NCBI GenBank assembly: GCA_947303895.1
Contig: CAMYZQ010000002.1
Span: forward strand, 1-50,252
DNA from: an uncultured Bacillota bacterium
GTDB taxonomy: Bacteria > Bacillota_I > Bacilli_A > RF39 > UBA660
Length of the DNA: 50,252 nt
Direction: 5' to 3'
Made by a program: the position numbers and the translations under genes. A model generated the notes under the pieces. It did no database searches. It saw nothing but the letters and a program-made list of their open reading frames with translations, and was not told the origin of the DNA. Position 1 is the first letter of the stretch, and each line of letters begins with the position of its first letter. Shown here piece after piece: positions 1 through 21,808 of the stretch.

Positions 1-1086
1 TAAAGAAGTACAATATTTATTTAAATCTATCCTAGTATCTTCTCTTTGTAAATCAACAATATGTTTTCTAAAATTATTATCTTGTATTTTCTCTAGTCTA
101 TCTTCTACATCCTTTATAGATGATACATAACAAAATTTTCTAAGCTCATCATTTGTAAATACTTTCTTTTGAAAGTCATAAGCAGAATCGATTAAAACTA
201 CATTTCCTATAATTATTGATTCATATATTCTTTGGGCTAAATCTCCCCATGACTTATATATAGGATCTCCAATAATTACAGTCGCCTTAGCTTCAGCCAT
301 CTTAGATCCAAATTTATCATATTCTACTGATTTTCCAAAATTAGGAGGATTTAGGGTCTCTATTTTTTTATGATTAAAATCATCAATAGAAATTTTTCCA
401 AACATTTCTACTTTAAATTTTGGATCATATCCAAAATAATATTTAATCATATCGTCTTCTCTTCTTCCACCTCTAAATGTACCTCCATACAGAAGATCAT
501 ATGATGTATTTTCATTAAATGGATAATAATTCATTGTAAGTAGTGGAAACTTTTCAAACGGGAAATATATTACATCTTTTATAGGAACTAATTTTTTAGC
601 TTTATCTTTTACTTTATGTACAAATCTAGCTTGAGAAATATATATAATATCATCTCTAGTAATTAAAATATCTTCTTTATTATAATTACTTGCCCACTTC
701 TTTTTTTCTATAGAAGGCCAAATCTGCTTAAACAACAAATTACAATCACACATTAAATAAAATACTTTACCTTTAAAATGATTTATAATATAGTAATTTA
801 AAGTTTGTGCAGGGTCATCTACTCCTCCAAAATAATTTACATTTCCATTTAATATAATAAGAGCATTATACTGTCTATCATTTATATTTTTATAATCATC
901 TTCAATATTATAAACTGTAAAATCTTCTGGAGTTAAATCTTTATCTAAAACTTTTGTATAAGCATCTACATCAATTCCTGCAGTAGTAAGAATTTTTATA
1001 ATAGAGAGAGTTTCTCCTGTTCCTCCACTTGTACCAGTAGATGATATTGAGATTCTACTACCTAATTTTATTACTGCTACTTTCAT
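1..1086 (-). CDS. bgt: DNA beta-glucosyltransferase-like enzyme (phage T4 Bgt family); 3' end runs off the window
   Basis: This ORF is not in the supplied track. Reading + strand triplets 1-3, 4-6 ... up to 1086 I found no tta/cta/tca, so the minus-strand frame is open throughout. It starts at ATG 1086-1084, an ATGA overlap with the stop of 1083..2387. My hand translation gives MKVAVIKLG..NGNVNYFGG..FYLMCDCNLLFKQIWP..YGGTFRGGRRE..VIIGDPIY..QRIYES..VVLID. This is colinear with T4 Bgt as I recall it (MKIAIINMG, NSSINFFGG, YYLFTDIRLPFSQSWP, YGGSFRSGQRE, LIIGDKNY..LRVWET..VMLID). Confidence 0.8.
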   Translation of the reverse strand, partial: MKVAVIKLGSRISISSTGTSGGTGETLSIIKILTTAGIDVDAYTKVLDKDLTPEDFTVYNIEDDYKNINDRQYNALIILNGNVNYFGGVDDPAQTLNYYIINHFKGKVFYLMCDCNLLFKQIWPSIEKKKWASNYNKEDILITRDDIIYISQARFVHKVKDKAKKLVPIKDVIYFPFEKFPLLTMNYYPFNENTSYDLLYGGTFRGGRREDDMIKYYFGYDPKFKVEMFGKISIDDFNHKKIETLNPPNFGKSVEYDKFGSKMAEAKATVIIGDPIYKSWGDLAQRIYESIIIGNVVLIDSAYDFQKKVFTNDELRKFCYVSSIKDVEDRLEKIQDNNFRKHIVDLQREDTRIDLNKYCTSL

Positions 1087-2387
1087 CTTATAATACCACA
1101 ATCCTTTACAACTTCTATAAAATCTTCTTTAGAAGTCCATTTATTATCTACATAATCTATTAATTTATTCATAATATTTTCAGACTTTATAAGTCTATAA
1201 ATATCAAGCTTATTATCTAGAATTCTCATATCACCATAGGCAATATCATTTACAAGATCAAAATCTTTTTCATATACATGCATAGAAAAAGCATAATGAG
1301 TATATGATCCATATGATACTCCCAATCTATCTGCAACATATTTCTGAAGAGATATGAAGAAACTTAAATCATAAGACAATCCAAATATCACATCATTACT
1401 TCTCATCACTGTAGTACAATTAAGTTTATTATCTCTTATCATAAAAGATAAACAAATTGTACATATTTCATCTTTCGTATCTTTTACATTAATATTTGGA
1501 GTATTAAAATTCAATATTGCTCTTCTAGATGATGGATCTTGTTTCAGCAAATCTATAATAGTTTCAATCTGATTGAAACCATGCTTTTTCTGTAAAACAT
1601 ATCCATACGCAGAATTACTTGTCACTCCATCATCACTTATCTTATCCCAAAACTTAGAAAAATGTCTGATAAATGCAAGATCATTTCTTCCAGACCAATA
1701 CCACAACATTTCTCCAATAAGATAATTATATGAAATATTTCTAGACTTAAGATTTATAACATCATTCGTAATATCATTTATAGTAAAAGAATAATTACTA
1801 AGTTCTCTATAGTCACCTCTAGTAGTCTTTCCACCACTAATTAATTCACCTTTTTCTATAAGGTCTTTACAAACATTTTTATATGCAATATTTATATTTG
1901 TCTGATTCATTCTAGAAACAATCCAAGACCAAAGTCTATCATAAGCACCATCTAGAGCAATATCTACAACATACATATTATTATATTCCCATGCAGAAAA
2001 TATATAAGCATATTTAGTAAATAACTGATTCTGTTGCTCAATCTCTTCTAGATAATTATATTCTTCTCTTTGAATAAGTCTATCTTTAAGAATATTTATA
2101 TCTGAAGTAATAAAAATTATAAGCAAATCATTATTATCAACTATTGCTCTCATAATCTTATTACCACCATCAAAATCAAACTTTGGTTCTCTTCCATAGA
2201 TTTCTGGATATACAAGCTCTCCTATATGAAATCTATCAAATACAGTATTTCCTTGATACAAAGCATTTAAATGATTTTCCAAAGTTTCAGATGGAAAATG
2301 ATTATAACTCATATTATAATTAGTTACTAACTTATTTGCTAAAGTTGTCTTACCTATTCCATCAGGACCTTCAAGAATTATATTCAT
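1083..2387 (-). CDS. Fusion protein: N-terminal P-loop (d)NMP kinase (thymidylate-kinase-like) plus C-terminal ThyA-family pyrimidine hydroxymethylase (T4 gp42 dCMP hydroxymethylase-like)
   Basis: The N-terminus has the Walker A motif GPDGIGKTT and a DRFHIGELVY motif, as in dTMP kinases. Residues ~165-434 carry ThyA-fold motifs: LIGEMLWYWSG, SNSAYGY and DPSSRRAILNF. The stretch DEICTICLSFMIRDNKLNCTTVMRSNDVIFGLSYD aligns without gaps to T4 gp42 DFMCTNTVQYLIRDKKINAVVNMRSNDVVFGFRND. The catalytic Cys (C309) and the base-discriminating Asp (D340) are both conserved. A strong RBS is present (AGGAGGAAAGTATATG). Confidence 0.75.
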   Translation of the reverse strand: MNIILEGPDGIGKTTLANKLVTNYNMSYNHFPSETLENHLNALYQGNTVFDRFHIGELVYPEIYGREPKFDFDGGNKIMRAIVDNNDLLIIFITSDINILKDRLIQREEYNYLEEIEQQNQLFTKYAYIFSAWEYNNMYVVDIALDGAYDRLWSWIVSRMNQTNINIAYKNVCKDLIEKGELISGGKTTRGDYRELSNYSFTINDITNDVINLKSRNISYNYLIGEMLWYWSGRNDLAFIRHFSKFWDKISDDGVTSNSAYGYVLQKKHGFNQIETIIDLLKQDPSSRRAILNFNTPNINVKDTKDEICTICLSFMIRDNKLNCTTVMRSNDVIFGLSYDLSFFISLQKYVADRLGVSYGSYTHYAFSMHVYEKDFDLVNDIAYGDMRILDNKLDIYRLIKSENIMNKLIDYVDNKWTSKEDFIEVVKDCGIIR

Positions 2388-2433: not shown

Positions 2434-4836
2434 TTATTGTAAATACTGTACTATTAATTCTCTTGTACTTTCTGGATGATTTTGAACTAAATTATCAATT
2501 GATACTCCTGAATTATATTCCTTAACTATGTTTTTAGAATATTCTTCTTCATACCAATGTTTTTCTATTGTTGGATCACATTTAATAGGAACATTAAGAT
2601 CTAAAGCACAAGTCTTCATTAAATATACTAATCTATCAGAAGCTTCTTTTGCATATTGTTCATCACATTGTCCAATTAACTCATCATGAACACCTATTAG
2701 AAGTCTAAAATTATATTTCTTCATTAAGTCATCATTATAAATAGCAATCATTGCTTTTTTAGTCATTGTAGCTGCAGAACCTTGGATTCTTGCATTTACG
2801 CATTGACGTTTAGCTCTACTTATAAATCCACCATTCTTTATAATTTCTAATCCTTCTTTTTTAGCTTCTTGCTTTACTTTATCATAATCTTTAAAAGAAA
2901 TATTTTTAAGTTTATTTTTATACTTATTTATTAATTCTTCATCTACTTTATTACCTGAAGATCCTATAAGTGGATTAAATGACTTTTTATTTTCCATTTT
3001 AAATGAATATTCTGGAAGTAATAAATCTGGAAGTCTTCTTCGTCTACCCCAAAAATCCTCTACATAACCTTTTTGACAAGCTTCTTCTTCAGTTTTTCTC
3101 ATCCAGTCAGAAACTTCAGGGAATCCTGTATGAAAGTCTTCTACTATCTTTATTGCTTCATCTAACGAACAATGCATGTCTTCAGACAATTTCTTAGGTC
3201 CCATACCGTAGCTCATTCCAAGATAAAGAGTTTTCATCTGTTTTCTACGTTTTTTTCCTTCAAGATTGTCTGAACCATCTTCCCAGTGCTCCATATTTTC
3301 CCAATAGTCATTACCATATACTCCAGAACCAAGAGTAGCATAAAGATCTCTTCCAGCTTTATATGATTCTAAGAGTTTATGATCTCTTGAGAAAGCAGTT
3401 AAAATTCTCGGTTCTTGTTGAGAATAATCTGCTCCTATAAGTATTTTTCCTGGATCTGCACAAAACATCATTCTAACTTCAATATTTCTAGCAGGAATTT
3501 GCTGAAGATTTGGATTTGTACAACTAAATCTACCTGTATCAGTACCTAATTGATTAAAATTAGAATGGATCTTATTATCTCTTTCAGAAGCAAGTTTGGG
3601 AAGAGCGTCTATAAAAGCATCTAATAATTTTAATAAAGTTCTTTGTTCTATAATTAATTTTACTATTGGCAAATCAATTTGTTTAAGAATATCTTCTCCT
3701 GTACCTCTTGGATTATTTTTATCTATAACTGATACCTTTAATATATCATATAGCAATATTGCTAATTGTGTAGGACTAGTTAGTGCGGGTGGATCTTCAA
3801 GCTGTTCTGCTCTAGTTTTTTTATTTTGAACTTCTTCTCCTTTTACTATTCTAAATGCTTTTTCTTGAGCATAAGGAGTCAACTTCCAAGCAGTAATTTG
3901 AGGTCTTAAATTTTCTAATTCTTTATTTAATTCTGAATTAATAATATCTAATTTATGGTGATATTTTTTACTTAATCTTTCACAGTATTCCTTATCAAGA
4001 GCAATACCATCTAGCTCCATTTCTGAAACTACTTCAATAATTGGAAATTCTACATCATAAAGAAGCGAAAGTAATCTTTTATTTTCTGGCTTTATTAATT
4101 CTTTAAATTGATATTGATAAAGTCTATAAGTTTTATATGAATCTGTAGCTGCATACAAAGCAAATAATTCAGGATCAATAATTGCATATTCTAGTCCTTC
4201 AAATAAATGATCTATAGAATATTTTTCTTCTGTAGGATCAATTTTCATTACATATTGATCCTTTAATCTTGCAGACCACTCATTCTCATTTAATATTCTA
4301 GCAGCAACTTGAGAATCCCAATAAATAGGAAAAGTACAATTACATGTACATTTAAGAACCTTATAGTCAAATTTTCCATTATGTGTAATAATTTTTACAC
4401 TATTAAGTTTCTCTACTCCTTCTTTTATGTCTTCTTCAGTTAGTTGCCAAGAAAGTCTTTCTCCAGTATCTTTATTTATATGATTTACTGGAATATAAGC
4501 TGCAGGCATTCCTTCTGTATAAAGACAAAGACCCATAAGCTTACATGTTAAAGGGTCAAGACTATTATTTGTTTCTGTATCTAAAGCTACAATTCCTATT
4601 GTTTTGCATTTATCTATATAAGAATCATATTCATCTTTTGATTTAATGACTATAGTAGAATCTGCATACTTTCCTAAAATCTTATAGACAGATTTTTCTA
4701 TATGAAAAAGCTTTTCTTCAATAGAAATTTTAGATTCTTTTTTCTTTACTTTTTTAGGACTATTAACTTTATCTAAAGCTTTTTTAGATTTTTCTATTGA
4801 TGATTCTACTACGAATTCATCTCCCCACAAATTCAT
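2434..4836 (-). CDS. Family A DNA polymerase (Pol I-like) with 3'-5' exonuclease domain
   Basis: Exo I motif VALDTETN. Pol motif A IGADYSQQEPRIL. Motif B KRRKQMKTLYLGMSYGMG. Motif C LIGVHDELI. The ORF is 800 aa and uninterrupted. Confidence 0.95.
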   Translation of the reverse strand: MNLWGDEFVVESSIEKSKKALDKVNSPKKVKKKESKISIEEKLFHIEKSVYKILGKYADSTIVIKSKDEYDSYIDKCKTIGIVALDTETNNSLDPLTCKLMGLCLYTEGMPAAYIPVNHINKDTGERLSWQLTEEDIKEGVEKLNSVKIITHNGKFDYKVLKCTCNCTFPIYWDSQVAARILNENEWSARLKDQYVMKIDPTEEKYSIDHLFEGLEYAIIDPELFALYAATDSYKTYRLYQYQFKELIKPENKRLLSLLYDVEFPIIEVVSEMELDGIALDKEYCERLSKKYHHKLDIINSELNKELENLRPQITAWKLTPYAQEKAFRIVKGEEVQNKKTRAEQLEDPPALTSPTQLAILLYDILKVSVIDKNNPRGTGEDILKQIDLPIVKLIIEQRTLLKLLDAFIDALPKLASERDNKIHSNFNQLGTDTGRFSCTNPNLQQIPARNIEVRMMFCADPGKILIGADYSQQEPRILTAFSRDHKLLESYKAGRDLYATLGSGVYGNDYWENMEHWEDGSDNLEGKKRRKQMKTLYLGMSYGMGPKKLSEDMHCSLDEAIKIVEDFHTGFPEVSDWMRKTEEEACQKGYVEDFWGRRRRLPDLLLPEYSFKMENKKSFNPLIGSSGNKVDEELINKYKNKLKNISFKDYDKVKQEAKKEGLEIIKNGGFISRAKRQCVNARIQGSAATMTKKAMIAIYNDDLMKKYNFRLLIGVHDELIGQCDEQYAKEASDRLVYLMKTCALDLNVPIKCDPTIEKHWYEEEYSKNIVKEYNSGVSIDNLVQNHPESTRELIVQYLQ

Positions 4837-13866: not shown

Positions 13867-14451
13867 TTATCCAACAACAATATCAGATTCTATGTTATCT
13901 GATGAATTTTCTTCTGCATATAATAATTCTGTGTACCAAGAAAATATAGCTGAAGTAGAATCTCTAATTTCTCTAATTTCTTCAGGAGTAATATCTATCT
14001 CAGCAAAATACTTTCTATCTTTAGGATCATATGAACATAATCTTACTTTTAAAGAGATATATCCTTCTTCAGCTTGAGTCAAAACTTTATCTAAAATACC
14101 ACCATTTAAATCTGAATAATAAACAGTAGTTACCAGCACTCCAAGCCAATTTTCTAATTCTGTATCATACTTATATTGTCTACCACCAATATTTGCTGGA
14201 GAATTAAGAATAGACATCCATACCCCATTACTATAAGTATAATTTGTAGTAGTAGCACTTGGTACCATATAACCAATATCTATTAATCTAGGTATATCTG
14301 AAGAATAATCTAAATTTCCTGTTACCGCTTTTGCAAATAACAGTGACATATCAGAAAGCCCTCTATTATGAGTAGTTTGTTTTAATATATTTTTACCTTT
14401 TTTGAAAGCAATTTTTACTTTTCCTCTATAAATATTTGTGTCTTTATTCAT
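13867..14451 (-). CDS. Hypothetical virion-module protein (194 aa)
   Basis: Long ORF that overlaps the upstream gpI-like gene by 8 nt. No motif was recognised. Confidence 0.5.
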   Translation of the reverse strand: MNKDTNIYRGKVKIAFKKGKNILKQTTHNRGLSDMSLLFAKAVTGNLDYSSDIPRLIDIGYMVPSATTTNYTYSNGVWMSILNSPANIGGRQYKYDTELENWLGVLVTTVYYSDLNGGILDKVLTQAEEGYISLKVRLCSYDPKDRKYFAEIDITPEEIREIRDSTSAIFSWYTELLYAEENSSDNIESDIVVG

Positions 14452-15478: not shown

Positions 15479-18400
15479 CTATTTATTCATCTTTGTAGTG
15501 ATATATCTAAATGATAGTTCATCAAAGTTTAGTTGTGGGATTACAAATTCATTGTACACGTGATTTGAATTCCAAAACATCTTAGGATTTAAAGGATTTT
15601 CTATTAGATCATTTGACTTAGGAATAAATGAATAATTATATTCTTCTTTATCGTCTAGTTGTTGTATCTTTGTTCTAATATCATTAAATCCCTCTCCTAA
15701 TGCAGGATTATTCTCATATTTAAATATATCTAATACAGTATATGTTACGGTCTTAGAATCTTCATCAATTTCAAACTCTAAACTTGAATCAACAGTAGAT
15801 AAGTCAGCGTAGAATTCAGGTTCTTTATAATATGTTTTACCTGAATCTATACTTGTATCATCAGATAATATATAAGTAGAAGTATCTAATTCATACCAAC
15901 CTTTCTCTTTTGGACTAGCACCAGAAAACATTGATTGATCTACTACTTCTAATAATGAAGAACCTTTATCAGAATAAGTATTATCTGCTAATCTATATGC
16001 TCCATTAACATATACATACCAACCTAATTCATATGGGGATTTATCAGTTAAATAAGTTATTAATGAAGGAAGTTTTATTAAACTATGTAATGAGTCTATA
16101 TCCAGCATTAAATATTCATATCTATCACCTGTGAATATATTCTTTCCTTCATTAGCATATGATCTTAATAAATTAGTATAGGATGAATCAAATGTATATG
16201 CCATATCATCGTATAAAGTTTCAGAAGATACTGCAGGAGCATCTATATTATATCCTTCTTCTATCTTTTTAATATAGTTAGCAGTTAAATTAATATCATC
16301 TTTCATATTCATTCCTAATAGGTAATGACCTGCCGGTAACCCAATAGGTAATGATATTTCTTGTGGAGCATATGATATATCTTCACCTTCTCCAGAAACA
16401 TCTGAATTAAAGTACAAGAAAGTTGAATAGTTACTAGTATCATATGCATAATATGATCCATTTGCAAATGGAACAAATGCATATAACTCATTTAAAACAT
16501 TTTCACCAAGAATATCCACAGTGGAAACATCTATAAAAGTACCTGATTTATTTTCTACAGGATATTTCAATTGGAAAGTAATATTAGTCTGAGTATCTCC
16601 AGATAAAACAGCAATAGGAGTAATACTAGAATCACTATCATATAATTCTAATGAATGATTATATTCCAGTTTTTGACCACTTGTACTTGATGTATTTAAT
16701 ATTAATGAAGAATAACCTCTCCACTTGTATTCATCTACAGACATAGTTTCTAAATCTATAATATCTTCGCCTGCTCTTTGATAAGAAACTTTATAAGAAT
16801 CAAGATCTAATATGCATTCTGTATTACTGAATACTGGCCAATTAACATATGATTCTGACATTTCAGAAGCTTCAAAAATTAAAGTATCATCTGTTGAAAA
16901 TGACTCAATATCATTTTGAATTAATGTTAAAGATGTATTTGTCTGTAATGATGTCCATAAATCTCCTATATTTTTTATAGGATCATTACGTATATAGTCA
17001 TTATCTAATGCTGTGCATGTCCAAGCTTTAATTTCACCACAGTTTCTATTATATAATTCTTTTACTTCATAGTATTGCTTATAAGTATATCTTACAAAAT
17101 CATTAAATAAATAGAATTTTGGTAAGAAGTAAATATGTATTGTACCATATTCACTAACATTATTTTTCGAGTTAGGGAATAATGCTGCAAGTTTTCTATC
17201 TGTATCTAATTTAATAAAAGGATTACTTGTGTCTGGTACATAATAATTTGTATCAAAACCTGTATCACCTTCAAAATTAGAACGCCATATTTCTGAAATA
17301 TAGAAATATGCATTAGATGCTGCAGCAGTTTCACCTTCTAATGCTGGGTAAATATCTCTAACTATTAAAGCTTTATCTATAAGACTATCACTAGTTACTC
17401 TAATATATCGCCCTGTTTGTGGATCTCCAGCAGTAGTTTGTCTGAAATTCTGAACTACCCAAGTCGTATCAACTTTTACCCATTCTGTTGGATCCCATGT
17501 TTCTGAAGAAGTTGCAACAATACATCTATAGTTTTCACTACTATATTTTACAACAGCATCATAATAATAAATGTTATTTGATACATAATCAGGAACTGGA
17601 TAATATGGATATTGATAAGTTACAGCAGATGACCATTTACTATAAATGGCTTCTAATTGGCTTGTACTGTCTGCCTCATTTAAATCTGCACTAGAAAGCG
17701 TATTACTATATAAAGTAAATAAATACTGTAAAGGTGATCTACTATAAGCTCCTTCATACTCTGATAAAACTACACCTGCATCCAAATAAGATTTATTTAA
17801 ATTTCTATAATAATAGTTTGTATTTATAGCACTTGGCTTATAGTAGAAACCAGAATTACTTACATCAGCAGAATATAATGAACTTCTTTCATTAAATAAT
17901 TCTATATTTATAGAATTTTCTATAGAAAGTATTTCTGGAGTTGTATCTGAGGTCAGTATATAATTATCATCTACTTTTTCGTATAAACCTTCTTCATTAG
18001 GATTTGTTAAATATGAAACAACTGCTTCTGCAGAACCAGATGAATCTATATAATAAGTTTTATATATAGGGGATAATAAACCTAAAGCTTCTGGCCCTAC
18101 AGAAAGTGCCTCAGATAAATCTAATGTTGTATAGCTTCCAATATCACCTAGAACTAAATTAGAATATTTTGTTCCAGATAAAATATTCCTGTCTATTGTT
18201 GAAGTATCTTCAGTTGCTGTAAATCTGTTTTGAGACGTAGCTGATGAATTATCATTTAAAGCATAAGTATCTATAAACTTATTATTATTAAATGTTGCCA
18301 ATTCATATAAACCTAATTCTTTAGGGTTACTCAAATCACTTGATTTATAAAGATTTACTTCTTTAAAGCAACCAGTATCAACTGTATCTGATACATAAAC

Positions 18401-21400
18401 TTCTTTTGTTACTCCATTATCATCAGTTATATAAGATTTTATATAACTTCCTGGATCTTTTCTCATTACTAATACATAGTAATATTTACCAGAAACAGAA
18501 GTGCTATCTAATGATCTTATAAATACTGGTTTATAATAATTTGTACCATCAATTACTTTAGTATCATAAGTAATAATATAAGAAATTGATGAATCGTCAT
18601 GAGTAACTTTTTCATATAAACCTAAAGCAAATGGATTAGCATCAGCTGGTAGGCTTTCTGGATTTAATGGGTTTGTTAAATCAACTTCAAATAAACCACT
18701 ATCAAAAGGTTTTACTTTTTGATTATCATCAGTAACGAATTGGAATAAACCATCTGAAATTAAGTGTGCAATATCATCAATGTTTACATAATATAAAGAA
18801 TTTTCAATCTCAGAATATATTGAAGATTCGACACCACAATTTCTAATTAAAGTTGTACCAGGACCTAATACTGCAAAATCTGTACTATCTTCATTTGTAT
18901 AGAATAATGCTTCACCGTTTCTTAATGTATATGTATTAATTGTTTCAGAATACATATTTTGTTCTACACTATCAAAAGTATCAAATAAAGTATATGATTT
19001 TAAATTTGAATTATTTGAATAAGTAGGTTCATTTAAGATCCAAAAGAATTTATATTTATCTTCTCTATCTAAAGTTATAGTAGCAATTTCTTGAATACTT
19101 ATTTCATTAGTACCAGAAATTACATTATTTATGATAGCAGAACTATTCCTTATTTCTGTTTTATAATTTTCATTATATGTTGATATTTCATAATAATTCT
19201 TAGTAGGATTAACTGTAAAATAAGGAATAATTTTTGCTTTAACGAAACTAGATAATGCAGAAACAGAAGCTTGCGGTGCTATATCAAATGAAGGTTTAAT
19301 AATAGTACCAGCACTACACGCATATACAGTATATCCAATTATAGTAGTTGCATCACTATCTTTAATAGGATTATATAATATAAAATATTCATTATTAGCT
19401 AATTTATAAGAAGCTCCTGCTGATATACCTTTATATAAAACATATTCAAAATGTACATTATTAGGAAAAGTCTTTGTTGGGTTAAAATGAGGTCTATATA
19501 ATGAAACAGTTTCATTATCTTTTAATGTATATGTTTTCCTAATAAATGATTCGATATTATCTACTGAATATGATGTTACTGAATCATTTTGAATATCAAT
19601 CTTAGCTTCACCAGTTATATTACTAATATTATCTATGTAACTAATATATTTCTGACTAAGATGATATATAAATGTTTTATCAGGTACTAAAAGTTGAGTA
19701 GTTCCAGCAAGAATAGATTTACACATAATATCTTTTTTCATAGATGATGAAATAATATTTGATAAATCTCTATAGGATTCTGGAGTATATATACTCATAT
19801 CCTCATCTACTGGTATATCAATATATAAATCTTCATTTTTATCATAATAAGTTGCTAACAAAGAATATGAAATAGGATCTATAGTAATATTTTTTATTCT
19901 ATCGTCACTCTTCTTAGCAATATCTACTAAATATTCTACAGATATAGGTAAACCAAAATCTACTTGTGAACTACTAACATTTTCATATAAACTAGCGACA
20001 ATATTACTAGAAATATCTGTTTGTGTTACTTCATCTAATACACTAAATGTAGAAATATTCATTACTACTGGGTATACTGCTTTAAACATTACAGTATGTG
20101 GTAGTAATGCTTCCACATCTATTTCATATACATTAGAATTATCTGCTGGTGGATTATCAAAAGCAGAATCATTAGCAATTAAAGTATAAATATCTTCTTC
20201 TTCATCATATAACCAATAAGATTTATTTGTGAGCCAAGAAGTATCTTCTGATTTCTTATAAGTGTTTTCCCCTAAAGATAAAATATCTTCATAAGTATGC
20301 TCAAGATGTGAAGTATCTCCTAATAAGGAGTTAAAATCAGGATATGGCTTCATCATAGTAAATGTTTGATTATAAGCAGTTTTATTATTTAAAGCTATAG
20401 CTTTTCTTAATAAATAAAACTTTAATGAGAATGGAGTTAAAGCATCTTTTGTTTTTGGAGCAATAGATTCTAATTCATACCAGTTTTCTTGCTTAGGATT
20501 ATGTACTCCAGAAGTATCAGCTTCAGATAAATCGTTATCATGAATTACATAGTATGTTTTACCAGAATCTACTGATGTATCTGTTGATTTTATAAACTTA
20601 TAATCAAAAGTAGATTCAATATTTGTATTATCTACAATTTGCTCTACTTTTACAATTAAAGTATCTAAATCATGGCTCTTGCTTATAATTTTATAAGTGC
20701 ATTGAATATCATTTGTTCTATCACACACAAAAGCATTAGAACAAATATCTAATTCTTGACTTCTAATATAGTTAAGATAATCTCTTAAGGTAATTAAAGT
20801 TTTAAATGTACCTACTGTTCTTTTATAATTTATATAAGCTTCATCAATTCCTTCTACATCTTTGTGACCAGAGGCTGAAGCAAAATTAGTAATTTTTACA
20901 TTACTAGAATCAAGAACAATGCCTTCAACGTCTCCTCCTACTGAAATAGGAGCTAAGAATTGATTTAATGATTGAGCAGGAATATTAGCAGTTTCTTGTG
21001 GAATTACTAAGTAAGTAATTTCAATACCACTTCCAAATAATTCTGCATAGTTATCAGGAAATTCTAGATAACAAGTATCAGTATTACTATCATATCCAAA
21101 AATATATCTTAATTCATCGTATGAATTTTCATATAAATTATTTACTCTTTTCCAAGAAGAATAATTTTCTTGGTTTGTATTTTTTATAAAAACTCCATTT
21201 TGAGAAACAAAAGAATGAGGAAAATATAATCTTCTCGATAACGGATCTACCATCTGAGCAGTAATAATCTTTTCATTCTCAAACTGATACTGTACTGCAG
21301 TACCTTCCATTGCTACTACATTAACTGCTTTACCATCTGTAGATAATATAGTATTAGATACTACAACCCCTTCTGCTCCTTCTGTCCCTATTATAGAATA

Positions 21401-21808
21401 TATATGAGCAGATTCTGAATCTGTAATAGGAGTAAATTTAGGAATTATATAAGATATTGAAGTGTCAGTAGTACTACCTATCCAAGATATTGAAACAGGA
21501 ACTGAAGCACTTTCATACCAATCCATATAATAACCTAACTGATCATATAATTGTCTAGCATTACCTTCTTGTGTCACTGAAAGTGGAAATGTTTCTAATA
21601 TATTTTTATCAATATTATAGTTACATTTATCAGCTATTAAAGCAGATAATTTTACTAGAATAACACCTGGATCAGATTCGTCAGATATAGATGGATCCCA
21701 TCTATATGTTAATTGCTTAATTAAATCTAAAACTTCTGTGTATATTGCTGAGAAATCTAGATTCGTATAAGAAATTTTTTGATTTTCATTTACTATGTCT
21801 TGTGCCAT
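15479..21808 (-). CDS. Giant (2109 aa) baseplate J-like protein with a long repeat-bearing extension
   Basis: The N-terminus DESDPGVILVKLSALIADKCNYNIDKNILETFPLSVTQEGNARQLYDQLGY is typical of the baseplate J/gp6/gp47 family. The gene follows the gp25-like gene. The ORF is uninterrupted for 6.3 kb. Confidence 0.7.
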   Translation of the reverse strand: MAQDIVNENQKISYTNLDFSAIYTEVLDLIKQLTYRWDPSISDESDPGVILVKLSALIADKCNYNIDKNILETFPLSVTQEGNARQLYDQLGYYMDWYESASVPVSISWIGSTTDTSISYIIPKFTPITDSESAHIYSIIGTEGAEGVVVSNTILSTDGKAVNVVAMEGTAVQYQFENEKIITAQMVDPLSRRLYFPHSFVSQNGVFIKNTNQENYSSWKRVNNLYENSYDELRYIFGYDSNTDTCYLEFPDNYAELFGSGIEITYLVIPQETANIPAQSLNQFLAPISVGGDVEGIVLDSSNVKITNFASASGHKDVEGIDEAYINYKRTVGTFKTLITLRDYLNYIRSQELDICSNAFVCDRTNDIQCTYKIISKSHDLDTLIVKVEQIVDNTNIESTFDYKFIKSTDTSVDSGKTYYVIHDNDLSEADTSGVHNPKQENWYELESIAPKTKDALTPFSLKFYLLRKAIALNNKTAYNQTFTMMKPYPDFNSLLGDTSHLEHTYEDILSLGENTYKKSEDTSWLTNKSYWLYDEEEDIYTLIANDSAFDNPPADNSNVYEIDVEALLPHTVMFKAVYPVVMNISTFSVLDEVTQTDISSNIVASLYENVSSSQVDFGLPISVEYLVDIAKKSDDRIKNITIDPISYSLLATYYDKNEDLYIDIPVDEDMSIYTPESYRDLSNIISSSMKKDIMCKSILAGTTQLLVPDKTFIYHLSQKYISYIDNISNITGEAKIDIQNDSVTSYSVDNIESFIRKTYTLKDNETVSLYRPHFNPTKTFPNNVHFEYVLYKGISAGASYKLANNEYFILYNPIKDSDATTIIGYTVYACSAGTIIKPSFDIAPQASVSALSSFVKAKIIPYFTVNPTKNYYEISTYNENYKTEIRNSSAIINNVISGTNEISIQEIATITLDREDKYKFFWILNEPTYSNNSNLKSYTLFDTFDSVEQNMYSETINTYTLRNGEALFYTNEDSTDFAVLGPGTTLIRNCGVESSIYSEIENSLYYVNIDDIAHLISDGLFQFVTDDNQKVKPFDSGLFEVDLTNPLNPESLPADANPFALGLYEKVTHDDSSISYIITYDTKVIDGTNYYKPVFIRSLDSTSVSGKYYYVLVMRKDPGSYIKSYITDDNGVTKEVYVSDTVDTGCFKEVNLYKSSDLSNPKELGLYELATFNNNKFIDTYALNDNSSATSQNRFTATEDTSTIDRNILSGTKYSNLVLGDIGSYTTLDLSEALSVGPEALGLLSPIYKTYYIDSSGSAEAVVSYLTNPNEEGLYEKVDDNYILTSDTTPEILSIENSINIELFNERSSLYSADVSNSGFYYKPSAINTNYYYRNLNKSYLDAGVVLSEYEGAYSRSPLQYLFTLYSNTLSSADLNEADSTSQLEAIYSKWSSAVTYQYPYYPVPDYVSNNIYYYDAVVKYSSENYRCIVATSSETWDPTEWVKVDTTWVVQNFRQTTAGDPQTGRYIRVTSDSLIDKALIVRDIYPALEGETAAASNAYFYISEIWRSNFEGDTGFDTNYYVPDTSNPFIKLDTDRKLAALFPNSKNNVSEYGTIHIYFLPKFYLFNDFVRYTYKQYYEVKELYNRNCGEIKAWTCTALDNDYIRNDPIKNIGDLWTSLQTNTSLTLIQNDIESFSTDDTLIFEASEMSESYVNWPVFSNTECILDLDSYKVSYQRAGEDIIDLETMSVDEYKWRGYSSLILNTSSTSGQKLEYNHSLELYDSDSSITPIAVLSGDTQTNITFQLKYPVENKSGTFIDVSTVDILGENVLNELYAFVPFANGSYYAYDTSNYSTFLYFNSDVSGEGEDISYAPQEISLPIGLPAGHYLLGMNMKDDINLTANYIKKIEEGYNIDAPAVSSETLYDDMAYTFDSSYTNLLRSYANEGKNIFTGDRYEYLMLDIDSLHSLIKLPSLITYLTDKSPYELGWYVYVNGAYRLADNTYSDKGSSLLEVVDQSMFSGASPKEKGWYELDTSTYILSDDTSIDSGKTYYKEPEFYADLSTVDSSLEFEIDEDSKTVTYTVLDIFKYENNPALGEGFNDIRTKIQQLDDKEEYNYSFIPKSNDLIENPLNPKMFWNSNHVYNEFVIPQLNFDELSFRYITTKMNK

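Follow-up and report, generated by a model that had tools for sequence, protein, structure and literature searches.

The window analysed here is a stretch of 50,252 nucleotides (contig CAMYZQ010000002.1, positions 1 to 50,252 of the forward strand, assembly GCA_947303895.1) that is filed under an uncultured Bacillota bacterium and probably belongs to a large phage. At its left edge the minus strand carries a homologue of the phage T4 DNA beta-glucosyltransferase (Bgt), which is the subject of this analysis together with the genes around it. Read as the reverse complement, window 1-1086 consists of 362 stop-free codons, starting from an ATG at 1086 with MKVAVIKLGSR, so the frame is open over its whole length as the original prediction had stated from the sequence alone. 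The remaining five frames of the same interval contain 17-57 stops each, and the chance of 362 open codons is 1.7e-15 for the base composition of the strand (9% stop probability per codon). The frame exits the window at base 1 with the last residues ...NKYCTSL. Relatives with 92% identical Bgt have proteins of 369 aa that end in ...NKYCNDLKEILEDN, about 7 residues beyond the window end, which gives the probable C-terminus that the original prediction had proposed to recover by extending the contig. An exact look-up of the complete neighbouring protein found no record through which the contig might be lengthened. By comparison with these relatives, the window encodes residues 1-362 of a predicted protein of about 369 residues, and about 7 C-terminal residues and the stop codon are cut off by the window edge. 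Because the stop codon of Bgt lies off the window, an ORF caller or annotation track would skip the gene. The window Bgt and a 92% relative differ at 100 nucleotides, 70 of them in third codon positions; of the codon changes, 53 are synonymous and 30 non-synonymous. This third-position bias indicates that Bgt is under purifying selection.

The block-by-block likeness to T4 Bgt that had been read from the letters was borne out by profile searches. With phmmer against all PDB sequences, the sole match was T4 beta-glucosyltransferase (1bgt and others, E=6.1e-36, query 1-349 versus 1-329). PF09198 scored 89 bits against a gathering cut-off of 27, and PHROG 7922 ('beta-glucosyltransferase') matched over 1-349 with E=1.9e-52. 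The AlphaFold2 model, built from a 46-sequence family alignment, had a mean pLDDT of 94 and a pTM of 0.90. When the model was searched with Foldseek, ranks 1-6 were T4 BGT entries only (TM 0.74-0.86, E 4e-26 to 3e-20), and the next fold was PimA (E 2e-8, TM 0.50). T4 residues E22, D100, R191, R195, R269 and E272 are invariant in this family alignment and in a 17-sequence alignment that takes in T4, Enterococcus phage VPE25 and Ralstonia phage RsoM2USA; their equivalents in the window are E25, D114, R205, R209, R286 and E289. The segment pairs on which the homology had been proposed (MCDCNL/FTDIRL, YGGTFRGGRRE/YGGSFRSGQRE and QRIYES/LRVWET) align exactly as claimed in the phmmer alignment, and the residues named as catalytic or UDP-binding are all present in columns invariant in both alignments. 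The suggested comparison with T4 Bgt by profile and structure prediction thus gave a significant match, a superposing fold and retained Asp and Arg residues. These results support the window frame as a full-length T4-type (GT63) DNA beta-glucosyltransferase homologue by profile, predicted fold and residue conservation. The conserved catalytic base is consistent with an inverting mechanism, which would give a beta linkage.

Table 1. Features of the Bgt locus and their positions in the window.
Feature	Position	Strand	Basis
DNA beta-glycosyltransferase (homologue of T4 Bgt / GT63 / PF09198)	1..1086	-	open frame, PDB, Pfam, PHROG, AlphaFold2, Foldseek
E289 codon	220-222	-	invariant alignment column
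R286 codon	229-231	-	invariant alignment column
R209 codon	460-462	-	invariant alignment column
R205 codon	472-474	-	invariant alignment column
Asp114 codon GAT (equivalent to T4 catalytic base Asp100)	745..747	-	invariant alignment column
E25 codon	1012-1014	-	invariant alignment column
ATGA overlap of hydroxymethylase-gene stop and Bgt start	1083..1086	-	sequence and ORF coordinates; identical 4-nt overlap in L001-L004
Thymidylate-synthase-like domain (about aa 160-434) with dCMP-hydroxymethylase signature	1083..1910	-	Pfam, PDB, alignment
N-terminal kinase domain (about aa 1-145) of the dNMP (thymidylate) type with P-loop GPDGIGKT	1953..2387	-	Pfam, PHROG
Family A DNA polymerase	2434..4836	-	Pfam DNA_pol_A E=5e-83; intact 800-aa ORF

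Some members of the Bgt clade carry additional domains. P0262, P0263 and P0355 (574-592 aa, 30-42% identical to the window Bgt) have a common C-terminal domain of about 200 aa, which in P0262 matches the uracil-DNA-glycosylase (UDG) superfamily (PF03167, 1e-5). In P0307 (542 aa) the C-terminus has a P-loop, EGIDKCGKD, instead, reminiscent of a deoxynucleoside monophosphate (dNMP) kinase. To our knowledge, a fusion of Bgt with a UDG-like domain was not described before. Because UDG-like fusions occur in three Bgt clusters, DNA is indirectly supported as the substrate of Bgt.

The gene upstream of Bgt (1083-2387) encodes a 434-aa fusion of a P-loop kinase and a thymidylate synthase (TS) homologue. 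Its TGA overlaps the ATG of Bgt as ATGA, which indicates co-transcription and probably translational coupling of the two genes. The order polymerase, hydroxymethylase and Bgt is the T4 order gp43, gp42 and beta-gt. The kinase domain matched Pfam Thymidylate_kin with 31.4 bits (cut-off 27) and PHROG 761 (thymidylate kinase) with E=1.9e-13, and its Walker A motif is GPDGIGKT; a dNMP or thymidylate-type kinase is the predicted class. The TS-like domain matched Pfam Thymidylat_synt (E=6.4e-29), and its best PDB matches were the CMP hydroxymethylase MilA (1e-24) and the dCMP hydroxymethylase of T4 (1e-15). The fusion is kept in the related loci L001-L004, L008 and L010/L012, and in L009 the kinase is a separate gene adjoining Bgt. 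A phage TS homologue and its cognate dNMP kinase, when co-expressed, are enough to place modified deoxycytidine in DNA (PMC13326640), and the fusion of the two therefore makes functional sense.

The residues of the TS homologue were examined in an alignment with E. coli ThyA, T4 gp42 and the VPE25 protein, with the numbering of ThyA. The catalytic Cys146 is present, D169 is retained and N177 is replaced by Asp, within the motif RSNDVIFGLSYD. An Asp stands at Cys -3 in the window (KDEIC), as in T4 (SDFMC), VPE25 (NDEMC) and MilA; the L143 column is ambiguous, with an indel in the MAFFT alignment, and its register was assigned by counting. Of the TS-like genes that neighbour a Bgt among the loci fetched, 23/23 have both D169 and D177. 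N177D selects dCMP over dUMP, an acidic residue at 143 goes with a hydroxymethyl product, and D169N is the mark of the flavin-dependent 5-hydroxy-dCMP synthases of RB69-type phages (PMC13326640, of 2026). Asp177 and the retained D169 in the coupled TS homologue thus lead to 5-hydroxymethyl-cytosine (hmC) as the predicted acceptor of Bgt. The base had earlier been left as a hydroxymethyl pyrimidine; the neighbouring TS-like gene narrows it to hmC.

In close relatives (Bgt 84-92% identical, contigs up to 157 kb), Bgt is followed in order by a CofD-family gene (PF01933, E=5.5e-22), a 221-226-aa protein without a family match in direct scans, an NTP_transf_3 nucleotidyltransferase (NTase), a dUTPase and a dCMP deaminase. 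The dUTPase is canonical and passes the NCBIfam dut cut-off. In L001, but not in L002-L004, the dUTPase and the dCMP deaminase are separated by a 109-aa open reading frame (ORF) without a family match (13924-14253).

The order Bgt, CofD-like gene, 220-aa unit and NTase is kept in more distant relatives with quite different phage backbones. These include the PolA phage L008, L009 with a serine hydroxymethyltransferase (SHMT) beside its TS-like gene, the T4-like L010 and L011 (Gp23/gp13 or gp32/PolB) and the 344-kb RsoM2USA. In a tblastn census of 32 loci (21 from IMG/VR), 18 distinct lineages have a Bgt that shares at least 41% identity with the query clade, and in 18/18 the CofD-like gene lies directly downstream of it. 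These lineages, with PolA phages, T4-like phages and a jumbo phage among them, show the cassette genes in the order given above. In the same census it is absent by Bgt in T4, in VPE25 and in the two most distant loci, L029 and L032. In most lineages the CofD-like protein and the 220-aa unit are fused into one protein of 555-620 aa, and in L010/L012 the 220-aa unit is fused to the NTase as a 444-aa protein. Such alternating fusions are expected of consecutive steps in a single pathway.

Downstream of the cassette in L009 (13526-18397) come the TS-like gene, then the SHMT and a dUTPase, and after these a 600-aa ART-PolyVal (ADP-ribosyltransferase-like) protein. The SHMT next to the TS-like gene is a source of methylene-tetrahydrofolate. 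The separate dNMP-kinase-like gene of this locus is directly upstream of Bgt.

The cassette proteins were compared with known families by sequence and predicted structure. In the 220-aa unit the HAD motifs I-IV (DFDDT, (S/T)GN, Lys and GDE..GND) are conserved across 16 loci. The AlphaFold2 model of the fused CofD-HAD protein had a pLDDT of 93.5. Its C-terminal domain matched in Foldseek 4bnd, the 'atypical alpha-phosphoglucomutase' of L. lactis (5e-10), and then PMM1 and PMM2, with sugar phosphatases ranking lower; the sequence profile of the HAD domain alone also matches 4bnd over its full length at 2e-5. The modelled domain has the type IIB cap fold and is read as a putative HAD-IIB phosphohexomutase-like protein or phosphatase. 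The N-terminal domain has YvcK/UPF0052 (2hzb) as its best structural match (8e-14, TM 0.76), followed by CofD 3c3d and FbiA 6uw7 at about 1e-8. The phage motif AyD(n/d)GkstG aligns to ADDGGSSG of GlmR, with the first Asp invariant and the second Asp or Asn. Of the two families, YvcK/GlmR is the closer match to the CofD-like protein by sequence and predicted structure. The protein appears to share only the superfamily fold with CofD, as TIGR01819 (CofD) scored 15.9 bits against a cut-off of 257; TIGR01826 (YvcK) scored 62 bits against 196. GlmR (YvcK) purified from three Firmicutes makes UDP-GlcNAc from GlcNAc-1-P and UTP and needs the N-terminal Asp-Asp site (PMC10128056).

The NTase of the cassette has the signature (L)xAAGxGxR...PK. 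Searched as a profile, it hit the GlmU uridylyltransferase domain (2e-15) as well as sugar-1-phosphate nucleotidyltransferases of archaea, but neither CofC nor FbiD. All three cassette genes can be read as chemistry leading from sugar phosphate to nucleoside diphosphate (NDP)-sugar. The CofD-like protein could be a second, GlmR-type uridylyltransferase, a CofD-type transferase, or a phosphotransferase acting just before the HAD step; the last role is suggested by analogy with the AfhE kinase and AfhF phosphatase pair. A CofC/CofD-type pair of NTase and CofD-like protein for a small phospho-acid was also considered. It is weakened by the GlmU-like NTase, by the CofD-like protein being nearer to GlmR/YvcK, and by the third gene being a phosphohexomutase-like HAD.

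From these features we favour, with a probability of about 80%, the reading that window 1-1086 encodes a functional DNA beta-glycosyltransferase that decorates the hmC of its own phage after replication, and that the cassette is a phage-encoded supply of NDP-hexose. The window Bgt would then be a member of a distinct Bgt subfamily with its own NDP-hexose genes, and the identity of the donor sugar is left wider than glucose. In the first step, the TS-like domain of the fusion protein would convert dCMP to 5-hydroxymethyl-dCMP. The fused dNMP-kinase domain would phosphorylate it to hm-dCDP, and a host NDP kinase would complete hm-dCTP, which the family A polymerase of the phage would incorporate. 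After replication, Bgt would flip out hmC, and with Asp114 as the general base it would transfer a hexose from UDP-hexose in beta linkage. The most economical reading of the three cassette genes is a donor line from hexose-6-P through hexose-1-P to NDP-hexose. Such a supply line would make DNA glycosylation independent of the sugar-nucleotide pool of the host, unlike in T4, which needs host galU for UDP-glucose (PMC3130283).

The reading builds on features read directly from sequence and predicted structure: the Bgt fold with its catalytic residues, a dCMP-hydroxymethylase signature, a fused kinase domain, and a cassette that is strictly linked to Bgt and has alternating fusions. Several points weigh against it. 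The acceptor, the donor sugar, the linkage, the roles of the accessory genes and the protection from nucleases are inferred from homology and gene neighbourhood. The window stops inside Bgt, and the presence of the cassette just past base 1 in its own genome is inferred from the relatives with 84-92% identity. UDP-glucose is made by most bacteria, so three genes for it would be extravagant, which points towards a different sugar or an extra transfer step. The CofD-like protein scores far below the curated cut-offs of both the CofD and the YvcK models. Finally, a dedicated dCTPase (the analogue of T4 gp56) was not found in the approximately 70 kb inspected, which took in the window and, in relatives, the 10 kb that follow it; it is therefore not established that all cytosine is replaced. 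The original prediction had proposed looking for a dCTPase or a dUTPase; of these the dUTPase, along with the dCMP deaminase, is present in relatives 3-4 kb past the window edge.

The alternative that survives best concerns what the cassette makes. The CofD-like protein might add a phospho-linked second group to glycosyl-hmC or hmC, for example hexose-1-phosphate with release of a nucleoside monophosphate, or the cassette might make an NDP-hexose other than glucose. We regard this as possible, although clearly the less probable explanation. The CofD superfamily fold is confirmed by both the Pfam and the structural matches, a second uridylyltransferase looks redundant when a GlmU-like NTase is already in the cassette, and the linkage of the CofD-like gene to Bgt is strict and independent of the phage backbone. 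Three dedicated genes also exceed what the common UDP-glucose would need, and T4 has none of them. On the other hand, YvcK/GlmR rather than CofD is the nearer relative of the CofD-like protein, the NTase beside it resembles GlmU and not CofC/FbiD, and the alternating fusions fit consecutive steps of one soluble pathway. We also know of no phospho-linked adduct of hmC. Uridylyl transfer is the sole demonstrated activity of GlmR (PMC10128056), which speaks against a phospho-linked group, but a second transferase, TAGT, often accompanies the alpha- or beta-glycosyltransferase in T-even phages (PMC13216743). Put tentatively, the Bgt subfamily may thus work with a dedicated NDP-sugar, and perhaps with a phosphodiester-linked second group, and would then represent an undescribed cytosine hypermodification in gut Firmicute myoviruses, T4-like phages and jumbo phages.

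Two other acceptor bases were considered and rejected. The dCMP deaminase and dUTPase beside the cassette in relatives prompted the idea of 5-hydroxymethyl-uracil (hmU) as the acceptor, with a base-J-like glucosyl-hmU in an SPO1-like Firmicute myovirus, because the two enzymes would feed dUMP. SPO1-type large Firmicute myoviruses classically contain hmU. However, N177 is replaced by Asp in the single TS homologue of the locus and in all 23 of the linked TS-like genes, the best solved relatives of this homologue are CMP and dCMP hydroxymethylases, and T4 has a dCMP deaminase too and still makes hmC. This acceptor is therefore very unlikely. A sugar ether-linked to 5-hydroxycytosine (5hoC), as in RB69, DLP3 and RL38JI, is about equally improbable. 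It would require the TS homologue to be a flavin-dependent 5-hydroxy-dCMP synthase, and some phage TS homologues with N177D and L143E do make 5-hydroxy-dCMP in phages that encode sugar-nucleotide supply genes. In contrast, the diagnostic D169N is absent, Asp169 being kept in the window and in every linked TS-like gene, and the transferase is a homologue of Bgt, whose solved representative acts on hmC.

Least credible of all is a glycosyltransferase that is decaying or that works on something other than DNA, for example on the cell wall or on teichoic acid, and has no more than a likeness to Bgt. In its favour, the GT-B enzymes are a diverse class, and teichoic-acid glycosyltransferases (TarP-type) are indeed encoded by Firmicute phages. 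However, all catalytic and UDP-binding residues are invariant in a gene under purifying selection, TM is 0.81-0.86 to T4 Bgt and 0.5 or less to any other GT-B fold, the gene is coupled to a dCMP hydroxymethylase and has UDG-like fusions in its clade, and no relative was found in 185,579 bacterial or archaeal genomes.

The preferred reading, a Bgt acting on hmC with its own hexose supply, was compared with named systems. Like T4 Bgt, the window Bgt has the two-domain GT-B fold, is alignable over its full length with the six key residues identical, and lies directly downstream of a dCMP hydroxymethylase near the DNA polymerase. Unlike T4 Bgt, to which it is 25-29% identical, it has a subfamily-specific SGGTGE loop and longer inserts in the N-domain. 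T4 has no CofD-like, HAD or NTase genes and takes UDP-glucose from its host, E. coli, and its polymerase is of family B, whereas the window has a family A polymerase and a probable Firmicute host.

The Enterococcus phages VPE25 and VFW (and also vipetofem and nattely) share with the window a Gram-positive host and a Bgt homologue that adjoins a TS homologue with Asp177 and a dUTPase. Their cytosine modification was detected by bisulfite resistance and glycosylation was proposed in 2016 (PMC4999554). In contrast to the window, they are siphoviruses of about 86 kb, their T4-type Bgt is about 30% identical to that of the window, and they have no cassette, no kinase fusion and a different second glycosyltransferase-like gene.

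The arabinosyl-5hoC clusters (RB69, DLP3, HY126; AfhE/AfhF) are similar in that a TS homologue and a dNMP kinase lead to modified dCTP, that DNA glycosyltransferases act after replication, and that sugar nucleotides are supplied by the phages themselves, with a HAD enzyme and a nucleotidyltransferase among the genes for this. In these phages the UDP-arabinose used by the DNA glycosyltransferases is made by a phage-encoded kinase, HAD phosphatase and nucleotidyltransferase (PMC13326640). They differ in the base, which is 5hoC made by D169N synthases, in the sugar, which is arabinofuranose, and in the transferases. Their supply consists of an isomerase, a kinase-NTase fusion and a GmhB-like HAD phosphatase, with no CofD/YvcK-like protein. 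Compared with GlmR/YvcK (UPF0052) and CofD/FbiA, the phage CofD-like protein has the fold and the N-terminal G-G-x-G ... A-D-(D/N)-G-x-S-x-G site, but it is usually fused to a HAD-IIB domain, is apparently confined to contigs of large-phage size, and lies beside Bgt in every locus examined.

Among cultured phages, the nearest relative of the window Bgt (48% identity) is that of the Ralstonia jumbo phage RsoM2USA, in which a CofD-HAD fusion of 619 aa comes directly after Bgt. This phage differs by its Gram-negative host, its 344-kb genome and a TS-like gene that is several kb away and not fused to a kinase. The paper on RsoM2USA lists only a BLAST hit for Bgt and has no DNA chemistry in it, and our literature search found nothing on the DNA chemistry of this phage. 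In its record (L006, MG752970.1 1-11011) Bgt and the CofD/HAD protein are ORF2 and ORF1, at the very start of the linear record, and any NTase partner would fall across the record ends. The TS-like gene, ORF10, has D169 and D177 and lies 5 kb from the pair, beside Hsp20, a TPR protein and a DDAH/arginine-deiminase-like gene; ORF473 is a separate true Td.

The Bgt family is small but reaches beyond T-even phages. It comprises 268 clusters at 50% identity among 1.84 billion representatives, 95 of them at E<=1e-30, and 120 GenBank phage records matched it, including 8 from Enterococcus and 6 from Acinetobacter. A survey of 2026 found glycosyltransferase homologues in 753 phages and called the prevalence of beta-glycosyltransferases 'not-so-limited' (PMC13216743). 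The original prediction had considered a Bgt in a Firmicute context unusual, which is overstated in view of this survey, of at least 8 Enterococcus records and of the proposal for VPE25/VFW (PMC4999554). Bgt in a Firmicute phage is already a known kind and no surprise. A search of 185,579 bacterial and archaeal species genomes for the subfamily of the window, aimed at host or prophage clues, gave no match. The CofD-HAD protein was found in only 2 of 50,697 GenBank phage records, RsoM2USA, where it is annotated as hypothetical, and an unannotated 462-kb metagenomic phage. Metagenomes contain about 500 members of the CofD-like family, and the contigs that carry them are as long as 410 kb. PHROGs contain no family for the CofD-like or NTase proteins, and in our literature search no paper joined CofD with phage DNA modification. 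These results indicate that the new element is the cassette linked to the Bgt subfamily, for which we found no describing paper and RsoM2USA as the sole cultured carrier.

Glycosylated hmC is the textbook counter-defence of phages to restriction enzymes and to CRISPR-Cas effectors of types I and II. Type IV restriction systems and the anti-phage DNA glycosylases discovered recently are in turn directed at it. The locus would represent the T4 solution in an uncultured gut myovirus with two twists, the kinase-hydroxymethylase fusion and a portable four-gene cassette in which the transferase travels with its own sugar activation. If UDP-glucose is all that the cassette makes, it would explain how such phages escape the dependence on host galU-type genes that is a known weakness of T4. 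Another sugar or a phospho-linked group would instead define a new DNA hypermodification and give the YvcK/CofD superfamily, which is poorly understood, a first role connected with DNA. Enzymatic library preparation and nanopore base-calling probably under-represent or mis-call the genomes of this clade. For the chemistry, RsoM2USA provides a cultured entry point.

The rest of the window gives the context of the locus. It encodes the replication genes DnaB, helicase loader, primase, SSB and PolA, and in addition an SNF2 helicase, a tail sheath, a tail lysin with CHAP and tail-lysozyme domains, a Listeria-Bacteroides-repeat protein and a collar/gp10-like protein. Every window ORF of at least 70 aa with a family match is on the minus strand, and the GC skew is negative throughout. 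GC content is 27% in the replication module and higher, at 29-32%, in the structural module, and there is no tRNA gene in window 1-50252. The nearest cultured relatives of the polymerase infect Clostridium, Streptococcus and Bacillus (31-38% identity), its best match overall is a human faecal contig (49%), and one close Bgt relative was binned with a Romboutsia metagenome-assembled genome. These relatives support the Firmicute-like host that had been suggested earlier. The tail sheath is at most 26% identical to anything cultured, and megablast of the first 20 kb against GenBank phages gave no match, so there is no close cultured relative. The phage is an uncultured large myovirus of roughly 150-180 kb from the gut, with a probable clostridial host.

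Other observations were made in the window and its relatives. A 2109-aa ORF at window 15479-21808 (minus strand), between the replication and tail modules, has no Pfam or PHROG match at E<=0.001, and several small ORFs of the replication module also have no PHROG or Pfam match. The PolA genes of the relatives with 92% identical Bgt (L002:2649-5408, L003:987-3746 and L004:938-3697) carry an insertion of about 0.35-0.4 kb immediately ahead of motif A (...FCAD followed by PGKILIGADYSQQE), which splits them into ORFs of 526 and 286 aa. They also have a 6-nt TAGTCA, with an in-frame TAG, between DYS and QQE. An Rfam scan of the insertion found no family, group I introns included. The insertion reads on from exon 1 as ...NNCITLYINDDIMLYNGTWKKVLEVEKGDEIF, vaguely Hint/intein-like in look. 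Upstream of PolA, L002 has two Glyco_trans_1_3 (PF13528) genes on the opposite strand (884-2222, minus strand), which are absent from that place in L003 and L004 and are possibly a second, variable glycosyltransferase module. In the 157-kb relative (L001:18352-19020), a GGDEF (diguanylate-cyclase-type) gene lies right after the RecA-like gene, which is unusual for a replication and recombination module of a phage.

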